Shown here in pieces: positions 9,959 to 63,499 of a stretch of 64,000 nucleotides of DNA; the stretch's first letter is position 1; every line of letters starts with the position of its first letter. The translations under genes and the position numbers were made by a program. The DNA comes from a virus (Duplodnaviria > Caudoviricetes). The DNA lies in the IMG/VR virus record IMGVR_UViG_3300032319_001025, positions 64,001-128,000 of that record. One strand, 5' to 3'. The notes beneath the pieces are model-generated. The model was not told the DNA's origin. It searched no databases and saw only the letters and a list, made by a program, of their open reading frames with translations.

Positions 9959-12900
9959 ATGGCTAATTTACCTCAACTTGTTACGAGAGAACAGCTAATA
10001 GGTCTTATTGTTGATTCAATGCTTTCCAGGCTTGAAGACGTAAACGATCTAAATCCAGGCTCAACTCTTAGTCAGATTGCTGAATCAGTCGGTCAGGTTA
10101 TGTACAAACCTTATGCCGATGTTATCAGTATGGTTGACGCTTTATCTGTTGATAGAGCGATTGGCGAAGCTCTACAGCGGCTAGCATTAGATAAGAATGT
10201 ACCAATTTTTCCAGCACTGCCTTCTTCTGGTAACATTAATATAACCGATTTAACATTTAGCAAAATTCAAAGCAGCGTCTACTCTGGTCAGCCAGCTCCT
10301 GTTGCTGGTTCTTTAGTGGTATATGTTTCTGACGCATCGCAGTTTTTATCTTCTGGTACTATATATATAGGAAGAGGTACTGACAATTCGGAAGGTCCTC
10401 TAGCTTATACATCCATAACTCCACAATCTGGTGGAACATATTATGCCATAAATCTAAGCCCGACTTCTCCAACTGTTAAATTTCATAATATTGGCGAAAC
10501 TGTAGTTATGGGGCAGGGCGGCAATAGAACTATTCCTGCTGGAACAATAGTTCAAACACCTCAAGGGCAATTAAGCACTAGCGTTTCGTTTTTTACTACT
10601 TTGCCAGCAACAATACTAGATGGTGAAGTAACCGTTGAGAACATACCAGTAGTATCGCAACAAACTGGAACTATTGGAAACGTGCCAAAAAATGCGATTC
10701 AATTAGTATTAAATTTAGGATTCTCTGCGTCATCCACAAATCCATTACCGTTTACTAATGGTAGAGATGCTGATTCGGACGAAAACATCAGGCAAAGAAT
10801 TAAAGATTACGAACAGTTAAAAGCTAAAGGTACTTCTGAATCAATAAGAGCCGCAAGCTTAAACATTACATCGCCAGATGAACTTAAAACCACCACATCA
10901 AGTAGCGTTGTTAATTATTCTGACACCAGTGCAGCACTTGTATTTGATGATGGCACAGGATATGAACCTATCTTTACTGGCGTTGGACTCGAGACTGTTG
11001 TAGCAGAAGCTCTGGGCGGAGAAACTAATTTACAATTAAGAAACATCCCAATAGCTCAAGCCAGATTAAAAACAGACGTAGGGTATCCGTATAGTGTTCC
11101 AGACTTGTACAGCTTAAGTGTTTCTGTTAATGGCGTTGCAACGACGCATCAATTTAAAAGTTCCGATTTTAAAGTAGCAACTGCAGCTACAGCATTAGAA
11201 GTTGCTTCATCAATTAACGCAAATGCTAATATAAACTTTTCCGCTAATACTTCAGATGGCGGCAAAAATGTTGTTATCTTTCCGAAAGATCCAACATTAA
11301 ACAATATAAAGGTCAATACCTTATCAAGCAATGACGCAAACTCATATTTAAAATTCCCAACAGACAATGAAGAGTTTACGTTAAGGCTTTATAAAAACGA
11401 TGAGCTTTTATATCAAGATGGTTTACCAGCCCAGCTTTATACCAAATCTAAATCTCTGTGGTCAACTGGTATTATACCTAATGATACATTGATATATAAT
11501 GTTGACAGCACACAAGATATTACAGTAACGCTGACAAATATAAATTTTCAAAGAATTAATCCTACATCTACAGTAAACTCAACTGAAAGCATTGATATCT
11601 GGGTTGAAGTATTTAATAGCTTGATGCCTGGAGTAACAGCTTCGGTTGATGGAGATAAAATAAAATTTGCTAGTAACAAAGGGCTAAATGATTTAGCCAG
11701 AATAGAAATTGTTGGCGGTACATTAGCAAGCAAGATCTTTGACACAAGTGCAGCATTGATATCAGAAGGTCAAAGTTCCGATTACACATTAAATAGAAAT
11801 ACTTCGCAGGTAGGTCTCTCAGTAAGCGTACAAGAGGGAGATTCTATTACAGCAGGCTCTAAATTTACAAGAGCTAAGATTTTAAGTACAAGCTTGCCTA
11901 ATGGTGTATCAACTAGTGGAAACTTATGGTTTATTTTAGATGGAGGCGCTGAAGTAATTCCAAGCGGTATTAGGGGTACAACACAAATTAAGTTTACTTT
12001 GTCTGGAACCACAGTAACTCTTAATGGCAGAAACATACTCAACACATCTATAGCTGAAGGTTTTGAAAGCGTTAAAGCTGGCGACTGGATACTCGTTTGG
12101 ACAAATGGTTCAGATGGTCTACAAACTAATCCTGGATTCTGGCGAATTGAAACAGCAGAGACTGGTCAGCTTACTTTTAGTAATGCTTTAGGTGCTACAA
12201 CTGGATGGATAACGAATCCACCAATTAATAAGATTTTATTTACTAGAAGTCTAGCACCAATTCAAAAGGTTTCTTACACAGGGCCAGCAACTTTAGCTTC
12301 TTTAGAATCTCAAATCAGAAGTCAGCTTTTAGGTTCAAATGTAGATGCTGTTGGTAGCAAGCTTAGAATATCAACTGCTACATTAGATAGCACTGGAGAA
12401 ATACTTTGCATAGCTGCAGATGAGAGCGCAGCGTCATTATTGTTAACTACTGGAACTGTAATCAAAAATACAACTTCACATGTAGGCTTTAATATAACAG
12501 ATGATTTAAATTACGGTATACCTTCCTTTACTCATGATACTTTATCAGCTTTAAATTTAGCTACTTCTGAATTTACTCCAACATTAGACTACATAGATTT
12601 AAATGGCGATACTTTTGATTACATAGAATTTTTAGATAAATTTAATACTGCGAACGAATCTAACGTATCTGAATCAAACAAGAATAGAAGAATTTTTGTT
12701 AAGAATTACGACAGTTTAACTGGCGCTGTAACTGGTTTAATTCCAAATTACATGCAGACTGGCCAAAGCATCCCTCAAGTTAGTGATAGATTCTTTTTAA
12801 GGAAGTCATATCAATTTGATTGTGAAGACACAGTTAATGTTACGATTGATGGGAACTCTGAAACTAAATACTATTCTTTACCAGTTTCAAGGAACTTGCT

Positions 12901-45973: not shown

Positions 45974-48900
45974 TTAAGCTGTTTTATATCTGTCTTCTTC
46001 TTTTTCGCTGGTAAGACTTATGACCTTATCTAATTGAAATCGTTTATTATTTGCAAAATAATACGCAATAACTAGTTTATCTTGAAATCCATGAGGTGCT
46101 TCTGACACTTCGGAATCATACGGCGGCCAGAGTACTTCTTTAGTAAAGACACCGTTAAAATCTATTATAAGTTCTGTAGCTTGTTTTGTTTTGTTTTTAT
46201 ATGTAAAGCATCTTTCTTTTACTACATATCCAATTCCAGCATATACAATATTTTTATATATTTTACCGTTTTTTTGAGCTTCTTTTGCTGCTTCAAGTTC
46301 TTGACCGCTTAAAACTTGTACACCATTTTCTGTATACCAAGAAAATCCTTTTTTGATCCCATACCTATTAGACATTATTAACGGTCTAACGTCCTCACTG
46401 TAAATACTAATAAGTTCTTTTTTCATTAAAAATTTACCCAAAGAAGTTACACCTATTAGCTCTTCTGGAACAGATTTTATAGATTCTTTCCTTATTTCAG
46501 CTTTTAATTTTTCAAATTCATATAATTTATTTTCAATGTCTATGTTTGGGTCAGGTAGAATAGAATCTAATACACCAGTAATGATAAGCTTCCTGCTTAT
46601 ACCAGAGTTTACCGCGCTTCTAATACCTTTTTCTTTAGAGTGGTTTTTAATAACATAATCTTCTAAGTTTGAATATGGAGAATTAGCTATAAGCTGATTA
46701 AAAGCTTTTTCACCAACGCCGTTAATTATAGAAAACGGCGCTACAAGCTTGTCGCCAACAATTTTGTAATCACCGCCAGAATTATTAATATCGGGCATTC
46801 TGATAGAATCAGAAATATATGGCCAAAACTTGTGGGCAAGCTCATCCTTGCTCGAGTTTGATAAGACTGACTTCCACCAATCTAATGGATAGTTTGTTTT
46901 TAAGTACATACACGCATAGGCGACATAAGCATATGAAATTGCATGAGATTTATTAAAACTATAACGAGAAGATGCCATTATCTGTTCTATTAAAAGCTTA
47001 ACTTGATCTTCAGACCAACCTCGATCTAAGCACGAATCTTTTAATCTTTTGGTTGCTACTGAAAGTAACTTCTCGTCTTTTTTACCAATGGCTCTTCTAA
47101 CGTCTTCAGCTTGTTCAGCTGTAAAACCAGCAAGCTCTCTAAAAATTTGAATTGTTTGTTCTTGGAACAAATTAATACCCACGGTGTCTTTTAAAATAGG
47201 TTCTAGGTCTTTATGTATATAAGTAATCGATTCGCCGTTTTTTCGCGCTACATAAACTTCAGCTAAAGTTCTACCATCTCCAAATGGTGCATCAAGAGTT
47301 CCTGGTCTTGCCAATGATGTAATAGATGCTAAATCTTCTATGCTTTTAGGTTTAATACTAATAAGAAAAGGTTTAACGGTTTCTGTATCAAACTGAAACA
47401 CAGTTTCTGTTCTACCGATCTGAAATGACCCAAAAGATTTTTCACAATGTGGTAGATTCCATGGATCTATTTTAATGTTTAATCTTTCTTTTATTGACTC
47501 TAAGCACCCTTGAATATCGACAAGAGTATTTAATCCTAAAAGATCGTATTTTACTAATCCAGCTAATTCAACTGACTTTGGCGAGAATCCAGTTAAAACA
47601 ACATCGTTGATTTTAATTACTGGGCAATAATTTTGTATGGGTTCATTAGCGATTACGACTCCGCAAGCATGGCTGCTTTTTTGACGTATAATACCTAGCA
47701 TTTCAGTAACAGATTGCCAAATCTTGGGATTGTTTTTAGCGTATTTTTTTAATTCTTGGTTTTGCTCTATAAGACCTTGGTGATAGTTTCCATTAGAATC
47801 CGTAAACCCTTTAACGAATTCTTTACTGTCAACTCCTTGTGGTTCAGATGGTAGGGATTTACACAATTTTTCGGTTTCGTTTGTAACTGTACCAAGTATG
47901 GCTCTTTCTGCATCTTTAATAGATGACTTAAGCTTTAATAAGCTGTCTGTAGAAATTCTGCAAAAACCGTCTTTATATTTGCTTTGTAAATACTCAATAA
48001 CTCTATCTCTACCTGTAGCTGAAATATCAATATCAACGTCAGGTAAAGTATTAGCTTTAATACGTCCAAGAGTTAAAAATCGTTCGAAGGATAAATTATG
48101 TTTTAATGGATTAACCGCACTAACTCCTAAAAGATAAAGCAATAATGAACCGCCAGCACTACCTCTAACGTTAATTAAAATATTGTTTTCTTTACAAAAA
48201 TTAGCCATATCTTCTACTGTAAAAAAATATGACAAAAGATTCATTTTTCCATTTTTTGCTAGAATGTCGATTTCCATTTTTAATCTATCTAGCATTTCTT
48301 TATTCGACCAATCCATGCGTCCATGTCGGTCAATCTTAACTTTAAGTTCTTTTAGCCAATCTGTATTGATTTCTGGTAAAACCCATCTATCTGAATTTGT
48401 TTCTATATTAAATTCGTTAAAATTGGATGCAAAATCATAAGAATTATCTACAAGTTCTTCAATATCTTTATCTGATAAGTTTAACGTGTGCTTTAGTTCT
48501 TCAGCAGCTTCATCGGTGCTTATGATATGATAAGATTGATGAAATTTCCAAAGTTCTTGTCCATTGCCAAGTCTGGCATCTTGAGTAAGTTTTTGCTCTT
48601 TCCATGCAAAATGTGAATCCAAAGAAATAATGGCTTTATCACCATATTTTTTAGCCATTTCAAGAACAAACTTGTTTGCTACCTTTTGAATATCTCCATC
48701 GATAGCAATATTGTTGCAACCAATCGGAACAAACTCGCCTGGAGTTATTATTTTACCTTCTGGGCTTTTTTTAGGAGATTTCCAATTATGAGTAATTTGG
48801 TGGGGAAACACTTCAACAAAAAAATTATTTGGTCCTGCAAGTTCTCTTAGCATGCAGTATGCTTTTTCAGCTAGTTTAGGTTCGCTTGTATTAAATTTAG

Positions 48901-49423
48901 TATAAATCATTGATTGTACTGCGCCAACTAAACAACTAGAACCTAAAGTTATATGGCCAGATATCTTTTGAAGCTCTTCCCATTTCAAAACTGGCTTTCT
49001 TTCTCCAAATTTAACTACAGCTCTTTCTTCCATTAATGGAGTTAATTGACAAAAATATCTGTACGCTACTACGTCTTTAAAATGAATAGTTAAATGTACG
49101 TAATGATTTTTTAATTTAGATTCTACTTTTTGACGTTTTTTTTCTAGATTTTTTTCATCTATAGTTTTTTCATAGTATTCTCTATAAAAATCTAAAAATG
49201 GAGTTTCTACGTATGCTTCAATTCCAAGAATTGGCTTTACATTTAATTTTTTGCAGAGGTAAAAAAGTTCCATTGCTGAATTCATGTTTCCATGTTCAGT
49301 TAGGGTTACATGTGTAGCTCCAAGCTCAATATTTCTTTTGATTATTTGTTGTACAGTAGCAGCCCCGTCCAGGCTATAATGAGAATGGGAATGTGGAGAA
49401 ATTAATTGTTTGAATTTAGCCAT
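45974..49423 (-). CDS. dnaE: DNA polymerase III alpha subunit (family C)
   Basis: PHP 'HSHSHYSLDG', 'RGSAGGSL', 'PDVDID', 'HACGVVI', 'KYDLLGL', 'FQEQ', 'YSFNKSHA'. Confidence 0.95.
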   Translation of the reverse strand: MAKFKQLISPHSHSHYSLDGAATVQQIIKRNIELGATHVTLTEHGNMNSAMELFYLCKKLNVKPILGIEAYVETPFLDFYREYYEKTIDEKNLEKKRQKVESKLKNHYVHLTIHFKDVVAYRYFCQLTPLMEERAVVKFGERKPVLKWEELQKISGHITLGSSCLVGAVQSMIYTKFNTSEPKLAEKAYCMLRELAGPNNFFVEVFPHQITHNWKSPKKSPEGKIITPGEFVPIGCNNIAIDGDIQKVANKFVLEMAKKYGDKAIISLDSHFAWKEQKLTQDARLGNGQELWKFHQSYHIISTDEAAEELKHTLNLSDKDIEELVDNSYDFASNFNEFNIETNSDRWVLPEINTDWLKELKVKIDRHGRMDWSNKEMLDRLKMEIDILAKNGKMNLLSYFFTVEDMANFCKENNILINVRGSAGGSLLLYLLGVSAVNPLKHNLSFERFLTLGRIKANTLPDVDIDISATGRDRVIEYLQSKYKDGFCRISTDSLLKLKSSIKDAERAILGTVTNETEKLCKSLPSEPQGVDSKEFVKGFTDSNGNYHQGLIEQNQELKKYAKNNPKIWQSVTEMLGIIRQKSSHACGVVIANEPIQNYCPVIKINDVVLTGFSPKSVELAGLVKYDLLGLNTLVDIQGCLESIKERLNIKIDPWNLPHCEKSFGSFQIGRTETVFQFDTETVKPFLISIKPKSIEDLASITSLARPGTLDAPFGDGRTLAEVYVARKNGESITYIHKDLEPILKDTVGINLFQEQTIQIFRELAGFTAEQAEDVRRAIGKKDEKLLSVATKRLKDSCLDRGWSEDQVKLLIEQIMASSRYSFNKSHAISYAYVAYACMYLKTNYPLDWWKSVLSNSSKDELAHKFWPYISDSIRMPDINNSGGDYKIVGDKLVAPFSIINGVGEKAFNQLIANSPYSNLEDYVIKNHSKEKGIRSAVNSGISRKLIITGVLDSILPDPNIDIENKLYEFEKLKAEIRKESIKSVPEELIGVTSLGKFLMKKELISIYSEDVRPLIMSNRYGIKKGFSWYTENGVQVLSGQELEAAKEAQKNGKIYKNIVYAGIGYVVKERCFTYKNKTKQATELIIDFNGVFTKEVLWPPYDSEVSEAPHGFQDKLVIAYYFANNKRFQLDKVISLTSEKEEDRYKTA

Positions 49424-49461: not shown

Positions 49462-49695
49462 TTACATATTATTTTTAACTTTTCTTAAAGAGGATTCTAG
49501 GATTTGCTTGTAAGCTTCGGGAGTTAAATTCAAAACCCTACATATGAATTTTACTGGAGCGCCTTCAGGATATTTTTCTAATGCCATATTAAGACTATTG
49601 AGCAATTTTTTATTGCAAATAAAATCGACATCTTCTGAAAGACGTGCTTTATCGTTTTCTGAAACGTATGACATTTGTAAAATTTTTTCTAGCAT
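49462..49695 (-). CDS. stand-alone sigma-70 region 4.2-like HTH protein
   Basis: 'ICRVLNLTPEAYKQILESSLRKVK' vs RpoD '[24 protein letters not shown]'. Confidence 0.6.
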   Translation of the reverse strand: MLEKILQMSYVSENDKARLSEDVDFICNKKLLNSLNMALEKYPEGAPVKFICRVLNLTPEAYKQILESSLRKVKNNM

Positions 49696-50080
49696 CTATC
49701 TTCTTCTGTATTTCGTTAATCTTTTTCTGTACTTGTTCTAGTAATAATATATCACAATTTATAGATTTTCTTTTTTCATCTATAAATTTAATGAAAAATT
49801 TTTTACTTGAAACTATCGTTTTGAATTCCCTAATAGACACTATTGTTGATTTGTTGCTTTTTAAATTATTGATAACATTAGATAAATTTACTAAATCTCT
49901 TTCGGCATTTTTAAGATCAATCTCTTCGCGTGCTATGCGAGTTTTGATTGTTCTAAATTTACAAAAAGTTTCCTCAAAACTAATATAGAGCTTAATTAAT
50001 TCGGCATCGTCTGTATCTGGTATCCAAATTTTTTTTGACATTTTATTTCTCATTGCCGTCAATTCTTTTTCTATAGTCAC
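49649..50080 (-). CDS. coiled-coil hypothetical protein
   Basis: Heptad-rich ORF in operon. Confidence 0.6.
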   Translation of the reverse strand: MTIEKELTAMRNKMSKKIWIPDTDDAELIKLYISFEETFCKFRTIKTRIAREEIDLKNAERDLVNLSNVINNLKSNKSTIVSIREFKTIVSSKKFFIKFIDEKRKSINCDILLLEQVQKKINEIQKKIDARKNFTNVIRFRKR

Positions 50081-50405
50081 ATTCTTTACAGAAAGAATAA
50101 GTTTTATTTAATAAAATCAATATTTCTACGTTAAAAGCTTTACACTTTTCACATTGTAACATATTAGCTTGCGGCTTTTCATTAAAAAGCTCTTCTTCTA
50201 ACGCTCTTCTGTTTTTACGTACCTGTTTTTTTTCCTTATGTTTTTTAACAAAATTTTCATTTTGTAAACAATACTCTTCGTATTTTCTTAAACGGGAAAC
50301 TTCTTTTTTAAGCTCTCTTACTATTTTCTGCAAGCTACGTATTTCGCCGTGAAAATCTTCTTTTTCTTCTTTAAATGACCGATATCGCTTATCTTTTTTA
50401 AACAA
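50043..50405 (-). CDS. coiled-coil + C-terminal zinc ribbon protein
   Basis: CEKC...CKEC. Confidence 0.6.
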   Translation of the reverse strand: MFKKDKRYRSFKEEKEDFHGEIRSLQKIVRELKKEVSRLRKYEEYCLQNENFVKKHKEKKQVRKNRRALEEELFNEKPQANMLQCEKCKAFNVEILILLNKTYSFCKECDYRKRIDGNEK

Positions 50406-50550
50406 AGCAGAATCCTTTTATAAAATACATATAAAAGATTAAGATAACGACATAATAAATAATAATATAATGATTACAATTATTTATATTGTTTTTTGAT
50501 GTGTGTTATAGGAAATTTGTGGTAGTAATGAGATAATTTTATAAAAGTTC

Positions 50551-52155
50551 TTACTTTATTCTCCAATGGCCTCTAATTGAGTTTATTAGCTGTCTAGAGC
50601 CATTCTTATAAACTAGGCAGGAGGTATGTAGCCATGATGAAGGTCCTTGGTTGTAATCAAGCTTTAAATGACTAGAAGTGCCTACTTGCCAAGCACCGCG
50701 CAAAATCATTGGGGTATGGGCGTGGCCGCTTACAGAATTACCATAAGCGTTTTCCATGGCTTTTAAAGAACCCCTGGAACCGTTAGCACCTTTATCACCG
50801 TGACATCCAAGTTCAATACCAGAAATTTTATAATCCTGGTCTCTTTTTAACCAAAGAACTTTTTCTGGATTTTTAATTTTTACAATTTTTTCCATTGCAT
50901 ATTGTAAAGGATTTTTACCTTCTAGCATAGCAGCGGCCAATAAACACCCTAAATAGTGATTTTGTGGATCTTCAATATACTTACCTTTTTGTAGGTAATG
51001 TTTTGATAAAAAGTCATGATGATTGCTATCTACAATAATCACTTTTCTTGCTTTATCGCTCCATTTATCAATAAACTTTCCAACAGCTTTTAGTTCATCT
51101 AAAAGACTTAATTTGTTTTCCATGGCCAATCTAGCTCTGTTTATTTTATTATGTTCTTCATGGTGATTAATCGATACGCCAGAAAACATATCATGAAGAA
51201 TAACATCTTTGCATCCAGTATAATCAAAAACTTCTTCCCAAGCTTTTTCAGCAGATTCGTCAGTTTCAGTAACGTGAGAATCTCCCAAAACAAAAGCTTC
51301 TGGACTTAATTTAGTTACATTTTTTTCCGAATAAGAAAGCCCTAAATCAACAAACTCACCTTTTGAATTGGACTGAATTTGTCTGTAATGATAAATATCG
51401 TCATTTTCGATTTCTACAATTACTGCCCCCATTACATGATCGTGGTGCGCAATATAAGATGTTCTAGCATTCATGTATTTTCTAGGCAGATATTCTGATT
51501 TAGTAATAGCTCCAGTAGTCATTAAAACATGTGGCATTTTTTCATTAGATGTTGGTGCGGTCAATAATCTTTGTTTTGGCGACGCATAAACAAAACTTCC
51601 TGATCTTTGTCCTATCCTTGCAAGGCTTGTAACTGGATCAATTTGTTTTGCAGTTAGCTTGATTGTACTAATAAAAAAGTTAGAATTTAAAGCGATATCA
51701 GCAAATACTATATGTTCATTTTTAATGATTGGATCTATAGCAACATTAATTCTTGAGCCAGGATCACTAGAAAGCAATATCAGAAGCTTAGCTTTATTTA
51801 CTTTGCAATAATTTTTAATAGACTTGTAAAAATTTTTATCAACAGAGCAACCTGTTACTGCTGTAGTAATAACAAATTTTTTATGAGTTTGGATGTCTTT
51901 TTTAATTGCAGTAAGTTTTTCATTTTTAAAAAAATCTGCATCAAGAACAGATGTTAAAAATTTAGAATAGTCTTTTGCTACCAACTCTTTTAGAGAGGAG
52001 AAATTGCCAAAATAACATTTAATCCTATCTCTACTAATGCCAGCTTTAATTAAATCTGCACGTGATGGATGGAACCCGAGCTTATTAGCTAGTTTGATAT
52101 AAGTATTAATTATGCGTGTAGCCTGAGAAGAAGAACTTTTATTAGTTTTGCTCAT
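50551..52155 (-). CDS. calcineurin-like metallophosphoesterase with N-terminal DNA-binding-like repeat
   Basis: GDSH, HDMFSG, SNHH, HGD, GHAH motifs; N-terminal 'LGFHPSR.....GISR..I..YFGNF'. Confidence 0.7.
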   Translation of the reverse strand: MSKTNKSSSSQATRIINTYIKLANKLGFHPSRADLIKAGISRDRIKCYFGNFSSLKELVAKDYSKFLTSVLDADFFKNEKLTAIKKDIQTHKKFVITTAVTGCSVDKNFYKSIKNYCKVNKAKLLILLSSDPGSRINVAIDPIIKNEHIVFADIALNSNFFISTIKLTAKQIDPVTSLARIGQRSGSFVYASPKQRLLTAPTSNEKMPHVLMTTGAITKSEYLPRKYMNARTSYIAHHDHVMGAVIVEIENDDIYHYRQIQSNSKGEFVDLGLSYSEKNVTKLSPEAFVLGDSHVTETDESAEKAWEEVFDYTGCKDVILHDMFSGVSINHHEEHNKINRARLAMENKLSLLDELKAVGKFIDKWSDKARKVIIVDSNHHDFLSKHYLQKGKYIEDPQNHYLGCLLAAAMLEGKNPLQYAMEKIVKIKNPEKVLWLKRDQDYKISGIELGCHGDKGANGSRGSLKAMENAYGNSVSGHAHTPMILRGAWQVGTSSHLKLDYNQGPSSWLHTSCLVYKNGSRQLINSIRGHWRIK

Positions 52156-57191: not shown

Positions 57192-57429
57192 TTGTGTCTG
57201 CTCTGCTTTTGTCGTTTCTTTCGCCCATCAATTCTTCAACATTATGTATTCTTTCAACGGCCCTACTCATTGCGCCGTTATCTAATCTTTCATAAACAAC
57301 TGTAGTACCAACTTTAGGTACAAACAAAGAAGGTTCATTACATTTTTTACATGGCATAGTTTTTTCTCTTTTAGGCAATGATGCCTTAAAAGTGCCATGA
57401 GTATTACATTTATAAGTAAACCAGCCCAT
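57175..57429 (-). CDS. FmdB-like zinc-ribbon protein
   Basis: 'FTYKCNTHGTF...PCKKC'. Confidence 0.6.
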   Translation of the reverse strand: MGWFTYKCNTHGTFKASLPKREKTMPCKKCNEPSLFVPKVGTTVVYERLDNGAMSRAVERIHNVEELMGERNDKSRADTNEPDE

Positions 57430-59186
57430 TATTCTCTAAGACCAGCACCTTTTTCAAAACGCCTTACGAATCTTTCTTCTTCCTTATCTGATTGATCATC
57501 TCTTTTAAATGCTATTAAGCCGCCCATTGTACCTAAAAGCGAGGCTATAGACATACTATTTCTAATGGCTTCTAGTACAGCGGGGGCAGAATCTAGAACA
57601 TCAATTCTGTCTCTCCATTCATACTCAGAAAGATCAAAAGTTTGATCATCTTTTTGTAATAGTTGACCAATCATACTATCTATTTCTTGTTCGTTAAATC
57701 CATAGTTTTTATATAATATTTTTACTGGTTCAACTAAAGCATCCGAAAGAATATTAATTGCAATTTTCCTACATTCATTTTTTTCTTTTCTACCAAGTTC
57801 TAGTAAGTCTGCTGCAATTCTAACTAGTGTGTAACCTCCGCCTGGCACAGCACCGTATTTAACGGCTCCTCTAATTGCCATCCAAGCATCTTCTGCTCTG
57901 TCTCTTTTTTCTCGAGTTTCACCTTGGCTTAATCCGTAAATATTTAAACGTGCAATCCCACTAGTTAATTTTCCTATTCTAACGTCTAATTCGTGTGCTT
58001 CATATTGGCTTTCTGGTTTTTCTCTTCTTAACTTTAGCTCTTGAACTCTAGTTTCAATTAAGCTTTCATCCTCATCCACCATTATTGAACTTCTAAATCT
58101 TCCAACCTCAATATTTTTTACACGATTTCTTTTAATTAAAAAATCGATGTTCATGTCTATAAGAGGTCTGTCGATTGGGTTAAACACAGGAGACCCAGTA
58201 TATGCTTGTAAATCGTAAAGCTGCTCAGTTCTTGAATTTATTGTAGCAGATTGTGTGGTTACAATTGGAAAAACTTTAAATGTCCCTTTATTCCAGTTAA
58301 GATGCAAATCTCCAACTACACTATCAGAAAACCCGTGCGAAACTACTACAATTCCTGTTGTAAGATGTGAATTTTCTGCAAAATATTGACCAATTTTGTT
58401 CATTGGTTCTAAGATTTGAGAAATATCATTAATAGTACCGTCAAATAAAAGAACAAGAGGTTTTTCTAGAACAACCATTGTTCCGCTTTTATCATTAATA
58501 AACCCAGTTGAAAAATTTCTACAAGATTCTTCGTACCCTTTATCTAGGGTATATCCAGATATTTTTTCAATTTCATACTTAGATGGGCCTGTTGCTTCAA
58601 TAATAGTGATATTGCCCTCATCACCTACAGTATTAAAAGATTCAATGATTGCATCAGCAAGTTCTTTATCCCCATTTGCTGATAGTGTGGCAACTTTATG
58701 TAGAATAGATTCTGAATTTTCACCATCAACTTTAATTTTATAAGAATCTATAACTTCGGAAATATAAGGGATTAGGTTCTGTAATTCCCTGACTATTTTT
58801 TGGGGGCTAAGTTTTGGATTTTTTTCAACTAATTTAGAAGTTCTTTTGGTAATACTTTCAGCAAGAATTGTAGCTGTAGTGGTTCCATCTCCAGCTTCGG
58901 AAGCTGTTCTGACAGCAGCATCTCTAACAGCCTCTAACACCAACTGTTGAGTTGCGGATTCATAACCTAAATTTTTAATAACAGTAACACCGTCTTTTGT
59001 CATTATAGGTTTTAATCCAATTTCTGGTCTTTCAATTAAAACCTGTCTTCCTCCAGGTCCAAGTGTAGCTCCAACCATTTTTGCAATGTGTTCCATCGTT
59101 TCTAAAACAATGTTTTTAAGTTCTTGACCTGGTGCAACCATTACTTTAGAAGCAGATTTTGGTTTATTAACTTGAAAAAGACTCAT
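57429..59186 (-). CDS. groEL: phage chaperonin GroEL
   Basis: TLGPGG, TKDGVTV, GDGTTTAT, 'EKRDRAEDA', G.VPGGG; no GGM tail. Confidence 0.93.
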   Translation of the reverse strand: MSLFQVNKPKSASKVMVAPGQELKNIVLETMEHIAKMVGATLGPGGRQVLIERPEIGLKPIMTKDGVTVIKNLGYESATQQLVLEAVRDAAVRTASEAGDGTTTATILAESITKRTSKLVEKNPKLSPQKIVRELQNLIPYISEVIDSYKIKVDGENSESILHKVATLSANGDKELADAIIESFNTVGDEGNITIIEATGPSKYEIEKISGYTLDKGYEESCRNFSTGFINDKSGTMVVLEKPLVLLFDGTINDISQILEPMNKIGQYFAENSHLTTGIVVVSHGFSDSVVGDLHLNWNKGTFKVFPIVTTQSATINSRTEQLYDLQAYTGSPVFNPIDRPLIDMNIDFLIKRNRVKNIEVGRFRSSIMVDEDESLIETRVQELKLRREKPESQYEAHELDVRIGKLTSGIARLNIYGLSQGETREKRDRAEDAWMAIRGAVKYGAVPGGGYTLVRIAADLLELGRKEKNECRKIAINILSDALVEPVKILYKNYGFNEQEIDSMIGQLLQKDDQTFDLSEYEWRDRIDVLDSAPAVLEAIRNSMSIASLLGTMGGLIAFKRDDQSDKEEERFVRRFEKGAGLRE

Positions 59187-62158: not shown

Positions 62159-63163
62159 ATGTCTCAAAAAATATTTTATAGATTTGTTGCTGAGATGAGT
62201 GAAATACTCAATAACAGCACGTTTAATTATGATGATCAAAAAAAGCTTTTAAAAAAGCTTTTTGCTGTTGAGAAAAAGTTTAAAGATACTTTACTCTCTA
62301 CTCCAAATGGCAGAAACGTTTATAAATCTTTTATGAAATTCATTCTTAATGATCAAAAAAACATATTGGCAGCTAGGATTTATTTTAGAGAAAGACAAGA
62401 TACTTTTTCAAATAAAATAGCTAAAGCTTTTCATCAAAACAAACCAGAAAAGCTTTTTAAATTTAGAATCAATTATGTATTTGCTGTATGGGCATGTAAA
62501 AATATAAAAAGAAAAAATAAAAAATTATTGAGACTTTTAGAGGATATGAAAACCTTAAGAAACAATCTTTGCGAAATGAATTTACCTTTAGCTATTAATA
62601 GATCTAAGATTTTTTGGTCTAAAATACCAGATTCCCATCTAGAATACATGGATTTAATACAAACCTCGTCCGAAGGTCTTTTAATTGCTATAGATAAATT
62701 TGTGCCCCCATTTAAGTTAGTTTTCCGTTCTGTTGCAATCGGAAGAATGGTTGCTTACATGATTGAGGATAATAGCGAAACAATAATCAAATTATCCCCT
62801 ACTGAAAGAAGAATACTTTATTTAATAAACAAAGCTAAAAACACTGAAAAAGCTGAAAATGAAGATGAAATTCTTAAATTTGTAAAAAAATCGTTTCCAA
62901 ATGTAACTAAAGAACATTTAAATGAATTAATGAACGCATCAAAAACAGTAAACATTGATATTTCAGCAAACAAGAATGAATCAGATAAAGATTCTATGCA
63001 AAAAAAAGAAGCTGACATTTTTTTTAAGTCTTCAAATAATTTAGAAGAAGACATTGTTAATAATGATTTAAAAAGAAAGCTTGTACCAGCAACAAAAAAT
63101 CTTTCAGTTTTAGAAAAAAAGGTATTATCTTTAACATATGGAATTAATTTTTTAAAGGAGTAA
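62159..63163 (+). CDS. sigma-70-family factor lacking region 4.2
   Basis: 'EMNLPLAI', 'DLIQ...GLLIAIDKF', region 3, region 4.1 'LSVLEKKVLSLTYGI' then stop. Confidence 0.8.
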   Translation: MSQKIFYRFVAEMSEILNNSTFNYDDQKKLLKKLFAVEKKFKDTLLSTPNGRNVYKSFMKFILNDQKNILAARIYFRERQDTFSNKIAKAFHQNKPEKLFKFRINYVFAVWACKNIKRKNKKLLRLLEDMKTLRNNLCEMNLPLAINRSKIFWSKIPDSHLEYMDLIQTSSEGLLIAIDKFVPPFKLVFRSVAIGRMVAYMIEDNSETIIKLSPTERRILYLINKAKNTEKAENEDEILKFVKKSFPNVTKEHLNELMNASKTVNIDISANKNESDKDSMQKKEADIFFKSSNNLEEDIVNNDLKRKLVPATKNLSVLEKKVLSLTYGINFLKE

Positions 63164-63166
63164 ATT

Positions 63167-63499
63167 ATGGAAATTTTTAGTTTAAATGACAGAATTGCAA
63201 TAGAACAGCCAGTTTTTACTAAAATTGAAGCTCAAATAACTAATGGTTTTGCAATGAACTCAAATAGAATTAATTTAATTGAATGCAAAGTTGTATGGAA
63301 ATGCAGAATTAATGACAACCTACTACTAGGTCCTGAAGATACCGTCATTCTCAGAGGCGATGCTGGACTGTATCCATGGGCAAAACAAAAGTTTGTACAC
63401 GAAGGAAAAGAAATCGTTCTATGCCCTAAAACGGACATTATTGGATATAAAAAAGGAAATGTTCAATATTATGAACATGTTGAAATAAAAGGAGCATAA
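63167..63499 (+). CDS. groES: divergent GroES-like co-chaperonin
   Basis: 'FSLNDRIAIE' (PLHDRVIV), 'TNGFAM' mobile loop, 'EDTVIL', 'EGKEIVLCPKTDIIG' (DNEEVLIMSESDILA). Confidence 0.6.
   Translation: MEIFSLNDRIAIEQPVFTKIEAQITNGFAMNSNRINLIECKVVWKCRINDNLLLGPEDTVILRGDAGLYPWAKQKFVHEGKEIVLCPKTDIIGYKKGNVQYYEHVEIKGA

Follow-up and report, generated by a model that had tools for sequence, protein, structure and literature searches.

Several sigma factors are known to consist of two subunits, among them SPO1 gp33/gp34, T4 gp55/gp33, SigO-RsoA and Tn916 Sig7-Sig8, and the split sigmas are pairs that jointly supply regions 2 and 4, as is explicit for SigO-RsoA (bioRxiv 10.64898/2026.10.01.756105). In T4, the place of sigma region 4 is taken by gp33, which clamps the flap tip and is structurally unrelated to that region (PMC7892883). 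Here we describe a phage sigma factor that ends after region 4.1 and, encoded at some distance from it, a free-standing 77-aa protein that resembles region 4.2. Domain 4 is the part of a sigma factor that grips the beta-flap tip of RNA polymerase. With a confidence slightly better than even, we propose a two-polypeptide sigma factor split inside domain 4, of which the 77-aa protein would be the detached region-4.2 subunit. We first set out the computational observations, namely that both pieces are homologous to parts of domain 4, that they tile it, that they co-occur and that the gene order is conserved, together with the other functions that the small protein might have.

Two genes that tile sigma domain 4

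The source record is a complete virus of 144,013 bp with direct terminal repeats and a genome GC content of 33-34%; the window, a stretch of 64,000 nucleotides, covers its bases 64001-128000. A gene on the plus strand (62159..63163) encodes a 334-aa protein of the sigma-70 family, identified by PHROG 351 (1.1e-6) and by NCBIfam sigma-70 profiles, and every one of the NCBIfam alignments stops 34-46 positions before the end of the profile. Its last residues, L-S-V-L-E-K-K-V-L-S-L-T-Y-G-I-N-F-L-K-E, are the 'E-x-x-V-L-x-L-x-x-G' helix of region 4.1. We compared the protein by hhalign with a sigma-4 template made from the C-termini of eight canonical phage sigmas, which were found as weak relatives in the sigma search and show the usual R-F-G-L ... 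T-L-K-E-V-G ... R-E-R-I-R-Q-I ... L-R-K-L-R pattern. Residues 294-328 fell on template columns 3-37 (E 8e-4, at a probability of only 24%), and residues 294-334 (63038..63160, plus strand; ...LSVLEKKVLSLTYG...) constitute a region 4.1 stump that is also the docking site in the complex prediction described below. No other sigma-like gene was found in the genome. Directly after the sigma gene lies a 110-aa ORF (63167-63499, plus strand) with no match in Pfam, NCBIfam or PHROGs.

The sigma has at least 273 homologues, and among the 120 listed most are 312-368 aa long. All 35 aligned sequences terminate a few to about 30 residues past the invariant G328, and the sigma of Myxococcus phage Mx1, WNM70309.1, does likewise. 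Within the C-terminal third, L315, E319, K321 and G328 are the only residues that are invariant or nearly so, and their conservation where there is no HTH in cis to pack on may be taken as an independent hint of a partner. In one relative, IMGVR_UViG_3300037424_001778 (locus 9962-12232), the sigma ORF reaches 756 aa because region 2 contains an intein-like insert of about 400 residues, flanked on both sides by normal sigma sequence; here too the C-terminus comes right after the 4.1 helix.

The 77-aa protein is encoded by an intact ORF on the minus strand (49462..49695), and a search of the source genome found its family in a single copy. Its start codon is ambiguous between 49695 and 49674 (minus strand): M1-L2 ... 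M8-S9-Y10 is kept in close homologues, one homologue entry begins at M8, and distant relatives align from about residue 11-18 onward. Because distant relatives begin there, M8 (49674), not M1, may be the true start. An AlphaFold (AF2) model based on a deep alignment (pLDDT 80.4) has helices at residues 13-21, 35-41, 48-54 and 59-76, and the chain ends one residue past the last of these, the recognition helix. Residues 43-77 (49465..49569, minus strand), with helices 48-54 and 59-76, are the HTH equivalent to sigma region 4.2, and hhalign placed them on template columns 41-80 with a probability of 91.5% (E 8.6e-7). The stump lies on columns 3-37, so the two pieces tile the canonical domain 4 with no overlap. 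An earlier note on this DNA had claimed that the small protein is the segment missing from the sigma gene, and both the early ends of the NCBIfam profiles and the position of residues 294-328 on region 4.1 bear this out. Residues 13-42 (49570..49659, minus strand), which column counts mark as a family-specific N-terminal part with the motifs D-x-D-F-I ... N-S-L, lie outside the hhalign match to sigma-4 and have no counterpart in sigma.

Searches with the 77-aa protein alone gave no significant match in Pfam, NCBIfam or PHROG (in Pfam, none at E<=1), and a nucleotide search of the phage collection returned nothing. A word-based search recovered five close homologues with 58-86% identity, and an exhaustive profile search of 1.84 billion representatives yielded a family of 119 proteins at E<=1e-3, nearly all of them free-standing and 64-143 aa long. 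The exhaustive search contained no fusion of a family member to a sigma; a 649-aa match in the family search was discarded as spurious, being an unrelated repeat protein. The family signature is I-x-x-D-P-D-F-I-x-S-x-K-Y-x-N-S-L ... Y-P-x-G-x-x-D-x-x-I-A-x-x-L ... E-E-V-x-x-I-Y ... K-L-R-x-x-M, and the alignment columns of D24, S34, G45 and L55 are nearly invariant. Mx1 is the sole cultured phage with a copy (OR576727.2, 157415-157645, minus strand), which lies directly before the DnaE gene and codes for 80 aa if translation begins at a TTG, or for 76 aa if it begins at an ATG. It is absent from the GenBank annotation, where the stretch between a 142-aa ORF and DnaE is left empty.

Likeness to sigma region 4.2 emerges at the level of this family. 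Pfam Sigma70_r4 (PF04545) matches 14 of the 123 aligned members (best 4.4e-5), the highest count of any Pfam family, HTH_69 equals it with 14 (best E-value only 0.0035), GerE (PF00196) matches 7 (best 3.7e-4), and a Pfam scan assigned the PhyR sigma-like domain to 4. The LuxR/GerE families are close to sigma-4, and Sigma70_r4 matches twice as many members (14 versus 7). Viral proteins of 74-79 aa make up 21 of the nearest 30 clusters in the ESM Atlas, with PF04545 in 63-83% of their members. A PDB search with the family profile found the NarL C-domain as its best match (2.7e-4), followed by WhiG (0.009) and several sigma-28 and FliA chains; a profile of the six close homologues alone reached a designed protein at E 0.12. 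The earlier note had aligned the C-terminal peptide without gaps to RpoD region 4.2, a match that amounts to 7 identities in 31 positions and is not significant by itself, and the likeness behind it holds for the family. Judged from these profiles, the 77-aa protein family is homologous to sigma region 4.2, at family level.

Comparison of structures gave similar but fainter signals. Residues 39-77 of the second model superpose locally, over 36-37 residues and at 1.7-2.3 A, on domain 4 of SigW, SigL and SigF and on DesR, though Z is only 2.2-2.3. The top Foldseek rows for the first model were sigma-A domain 4, yet at E=2; neither of the two models had a Foldseek match at E<=0.001, and no whole-model match to sigma-4 was significant. 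A likeness to portal proteins in a wide fold search (best Z 3.5) was regarded as a common helical arrangement.

These same matches invite the reading that the protein belongs to the LuxR/GerE-sigma-4 class as a small, free-standing HTH transcription factor that binds phage DNA by itself, for example in control of the dnaE operon. Stand-alone HTHs of this type (the NarL C-domain, PDB 1JE8/1A04, and GerE) resemble the 77-aa protein in size and HTH pattern and include its best PDB sequence matches; the GerE protein of B. subtilis has 74 residues. The NarL score, the seven family members matched by GerE and the three consecutive helices of the model, which could make a self-sufficient HTH, would all suit such a factor. 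LuxR/GerE proteins such as NarL and GerE differ, however, in having a fourth helix after the recognition helix that serves dimerisation. That helix is absent from the 77-aa protein, whose chain ends directly after the recognition helix. The strict pairing of the family with a truncated, 4.2-less sigma, together with the predicted docking, would also be left without explanation, and we consider this reading quite unlikely.

Co-occurrence and gene order

Taking the sigma as the starting point, all 16 of 16 IMG/VR records (108-170 kb) carry exactly one member of the small-protein family, against none of the three records that have unrelated sigmas only. With the small protein as the start, the sigma was found in 5 of 6 further records, and the contig with a seventh locus had been found before to bear the sigma; the sole record with the small protein but without the sigma is a fragment estimated to be 33% complete. 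The two genes occur together in every tested genome that is at least 90% complete. The co-occurrence with 4.2-less sigmas that the earlier note had put forward as a check thus appears in both directions (16/16 and 6/7, versus 0/3 with other sigmas). The control was another HTH protein of the same genome, a basic protein of 124 aa with a resolvase-type HTH (HTH_7, 3.6e-4), encoded at genome positions 142065-142439, outside the window. It is the genome's only match to Sigma70_r4, and a weak one (E 0.05); because it is missing from 11 of 12 clade genomes, we rejected it as the partner of the sigma.

The co-occurring genomes all come from a single phage clade that shares its gene order, and for this reason the co-occurrence may reflect only that both are core genes, which does not imply a joint function. 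Inspection by eye of covariation between the sigma stump and the small protein (e.g., position 327 of the sigma versus position 42 of the small protein) revealed no clear pattern in 24 genome pairs, a set that is too small and too closely related for this purpose.

The small gene has its strongest conserved linkage to dnaE. The dnaE-like gene (45974..49423, minus strand) encodes a DNA polymerase III alpha of 1149 aa, with matches among the annotated alpha subunits of phage DNA polymerase III, and it begins 38 nt downstream of the 77-aa gene on the same strand, so that the latter was rightly placed immediately upstream of dnaE by the earlier note. The window, Mx1 and 16/16 related records all have the small gene in this position, directly upstream and on the same strand, and the arrangement spans lineages with only about 30% identity between their DnaE N-termini. 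The gene contexts that we read are those of IMG/VR records and of Mx1. The sigma gene is 12.5 kb away on the opposite strand, and both this separation and the stronger tie of the small gene to dnaE count against the two-subunit reading.

On the other side of the small gene lies a conserved neighbor, a 143-aa ORF (49649..50080, minus strand) that is predicted to be helical, belongs to no known family in Pfam and PHROG searches, and overlaps the start of the 77-aa gene by 47 nt with its 3' end. Most related loci, and Mx1 as well, have a helical ORF of 123-159 aa in front of the small gene. In the majority of the relatives with this ORF, its 3' end runs into the small gene, with an overlap of between a few and about 60 nt. 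The conserved trio of upstream ORF, small gene and dnaE suggests translational coupling. Further upstream, a gene at 50551-52155 (minus strand) encodes a 534-aa protein homologous to PHROG 1745, a metallophosphatase-like 'DNA transfer protein' (8.9e-95), and in Mx1 a 'metallo-dependent phosphatase' occupies the matching position. The minus strand also carries a GroEL homologue (PHROG 5725) at 57429-59186.

The adjacency to dnaE and the conserved trio could be viewed as the mark of a replication accessory of the DnaE-type polymerase, in which the HTH likeness would be incidental. Phage replication modules often keep their gene order without direct interaction, though, and no similarity to a polymerase III accessory subunit appeared in Pfam, PHROG, NCBIfam or PDB searches. 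This reading would also fail to account for the sigma-4.2 homology and the predicted docking to the sigma, and we hold it to be very improbable.

Predicted docking and the DNA-reading residues

Complex prediction with the full-length sigma and the 77-aa protein gave a score of 0.71 (runs of 0.74, 0.71 and 0.67), and the best of three controls reached 0.00. A mark of 0.71 is attained by 58 of 80 solved complexes and by 2 of 110 mismatched pairs, counts that are valid only roughly with the custom alignments used here. The runs share at least 74% of their contacts, and the pLDDT of the partner is at least 72. On the sigma, the predicted interface is confined to residues 307-332, within the 4.1 stump; on the 77-aa protein it comprises residues 19-26, 35-46, 50-57 and 62-77. 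V322 and L325 of the sigma are predicted to pack against I51, L55, Y62, I65 and L66 of the small protein. The two sigma residues may align with V558 and M561 in region 4.1 of E. coli sigma-70, in which case the packing would be canonical. The N-terminal D-x-D-F-I ... N-S-L part is predicted to clasp the stump.

That the sigma and the 77-aa protein bind each other is a prediction, and the passing score may stem from nothing more than the model's memory of an intact sigma-4 fold, into which the two halves fit. Two halves of a well-known fold tend to score well for that reason. The 77-aa protein also has a helix of its own, residues 35-41 (ending at G45), in the position of the third HTH helix, and because of this helix it might fold and act alone.

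The predicted interface would suit an inhibitory binder just as well as a completing one. The small protein could be a regulator with an anti-sigma-like action, either binding the sigma stump so that the sigma is inactive or timed, or sitting as a sigma-4 decoy on the host beta-flap and thereby turning off transcription by host sigma-70, with an AsiA-like effect. The location of its gene in the replication arm among early/middle-type genes is in keeping with such a role, as is the mostly acidic recognition helix of the family (described below), which would suit a decoy that must not bind DNA. Pfam, NCBIfam and PDB profile searches, however, revealed no resemblance to known anti-sigma families, and the 77-aa protein matches exactly the part that is absent from the sigma. 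The sigma family, moreover, never has a 4.2 of its own, so that the sigma alone would have no complete flap-binding domain. We judge a regulator of this kind unlikely.

The -35 contacts on the recognition helix of E. coli sigma are R584, E585, R586, R588 and Q589. At these five reading positions the 77-aa protein has P, E, A, K and Q, and most of the canonical residues are not kept; the change of TRER to TPEA, in which proline and alanine take the place of the arginines, is present as the earlier note had claimed. Across the family, positions 59-64 have the mostly acidic consensus E/E/E/V/E/E, while the family keeps the structural residues and the K-L-R end. The copy in the window is mildly basic (net +2) and retains E, K and Q at three of the five reading positions, which would favor a DNA-binding HTH factor, whereas the acidic residues that most family members have at the DNA-facing positions set the family apart from LuxR/GerE proteins and speak against that reading.

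The genome contains a candidate late-promoter box, CTTAATCT, in 18 copies over 144 kb, 17 of them on the plus strand with the structural genes, and for 16 of the 18 copies an ORF starts no more than 60 nt downstream. No conserved upstream box accompanies it: between -50 and -2, no position has an information content of 0.6 bit or more. The sole copy on the minus strand (50436..50443) is 30 nt before the ORF at 50405, the first in the run formed by a 120-aa ORF, the 143-aa ORF, the small gene and dnaE. A scan for sigma-70-type promoters around the 77-aa gene gave nothing above the shuffled background. The link between this box and the phage sigma is an assumption on our part. The 'new specificity' that had been suggested for the completed domain is doubtful, given the predominance of acidic residues at the family's reading positions and the lack of a -35 box in the candidate late promoter. 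The functional tie to replication that had likewise been raised would have the conserved dnaE adjacency of the small gene as its one argument.

Based on these observations, we return to the two-polypeptide sigma factor as the preferred reading. The phage sigma would supply regions 2 and 3 and the 4.1 helices, and the 77-aa protein would contribute the two HTH helices of region 4.2 plus its family-specific N-terminal clasp (D-x-D-F-I / N-S-L). The last helix of the sigma, with V322 and L325, would insert into the hydrophobic face of the HTH formed by I51, L55, Y62, I65 and L66, and a sigma-4-like domain would thereby be rebuilt from two chains. Such a domain would anchor the sigma on the flap, with a function like that of T4 gp33, rather than read a -35 hexamer. 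Because most of the reading residues are lost and the promoter has a single box, the rebuilt domain would most likely be a flap anchor and not a -35 reader, and we infer a role in late transcription. As for the earlier proposal that the small protein completes sigma domain 4 in trans, the tiling, the co-occurrence and the predicted docking argue for it in silico; of its further parts, kinship with gp33 was rejected and the new specificity is doubtful.

A further idea, which we offer tentatively and think possible but on the whole doubtful, is that domain 4 is drawn from two gene modules, so that an active holoenzyme would form only when both are expressed. The structural arm opens with the gene for the stump, and the 4.2 piece comes from the replication operon that also contains dnaE; the pair might act as a protein-level AND gate that grips the flap without reading a -35 box. 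Late transcription would in this way be tied to the programme of replication, with no sliding clamp involved.

Comparison with known two-subunit sigma factors

A literature search, outside of which most subscription journals lay, found nothing on a 4.2-less phage sigma, on a split within domain 4 or on the Mx1 sigma. The B. subtilis pair SigO-RsoA and the Tn916 pair Sig7-Sig8 are like the phage pair in that the functions of a sigma are carried on two polypeptides that act jointly with RNA polymerase, the binding being predicted in our case, and in that one partner is a small protein from a mobile element or phage. They differ in where the cut falls. In SigO-RsoA and Sig7-Sig8, regions 2 and 4 are on separate proteins, with the cut between domains, while in the phage pair domain 4 itself is cut: the 4.1 helices stay with regions 2 and 3 on the large subunit, and the 4.2 HTH is on the other protein. 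Because the cut is inside domain 4, one folded domain would be assembled from two chains. The genes of the phage pair are also not adjacent, lying far apart on opposite strands, in which they again differ from SigO-RsoA and Sig7-Sig8.

SPO1 gp33/gp34, which we compare by description only, offers a case of two phage proteins that are jointly needed to direct the host polymerase to late genes, a pair described as a two-protein sigma and not as one split within domain 4. If the present reading is true, the cut in mid-domain 4, a small domain of four helices, set beside published two-subunit sigmas that are cut between domains, would show assembly of this domain in trans, and the split has been kept across a large, old phage clade. 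It would also provide a natural system in which the parts of sigma-4 needed for flap binding can be separated from the parts needed for DNA reading. Because the cultured Myxococcus phage Mx1 has both genes, the two-subunit reading is directly testable.

Kinship of the 77-aa protein with T4 gp33, which the earlier note had considered in calling it gp33-like, was rejected: the hhalign probability is 0.8%, and 2.1% against a 20-member gp33 alignment. T4 gp33 (PF16805 Trans_coact, PDB 3TBI) itself scores 5.3e-27 on PF16805, a family that is not among the 25 most often matched by small-protein family members in a Pfam scan. The 77-aa protein has no tail resembling the invariant gp33 C-terminus, and since it ends right after the HTH, a sliding-clamp-binding tail is not evident.

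The likeness to T4 is functional only, the 77-aa protein being a sigma-4.2 homologue. T4 gp55 and gp33 also combine a phage sigma without a working -35-reading domain with a separate small protein that is thought to sit at the beta-flap tip, and T4 late promoters are, like the candidate box here, single -10-like boxes without a -35. T4 gene 33 adjoins genes 59 and 32, and the small gene here is likewise found among replication genes. The two sigmas differ in what they have kept: gp55 lacks regions 3 and 4, whereas the phage sigma described here retains region 3 and 4.1. The T4-type solution is a flap-occupying helper that is separate from the -10-reading subunit. If our reading is true, the pair described here would represent a second, independent route to that solution for -35-less late promoters, taken from a true sigma-4 homologue.
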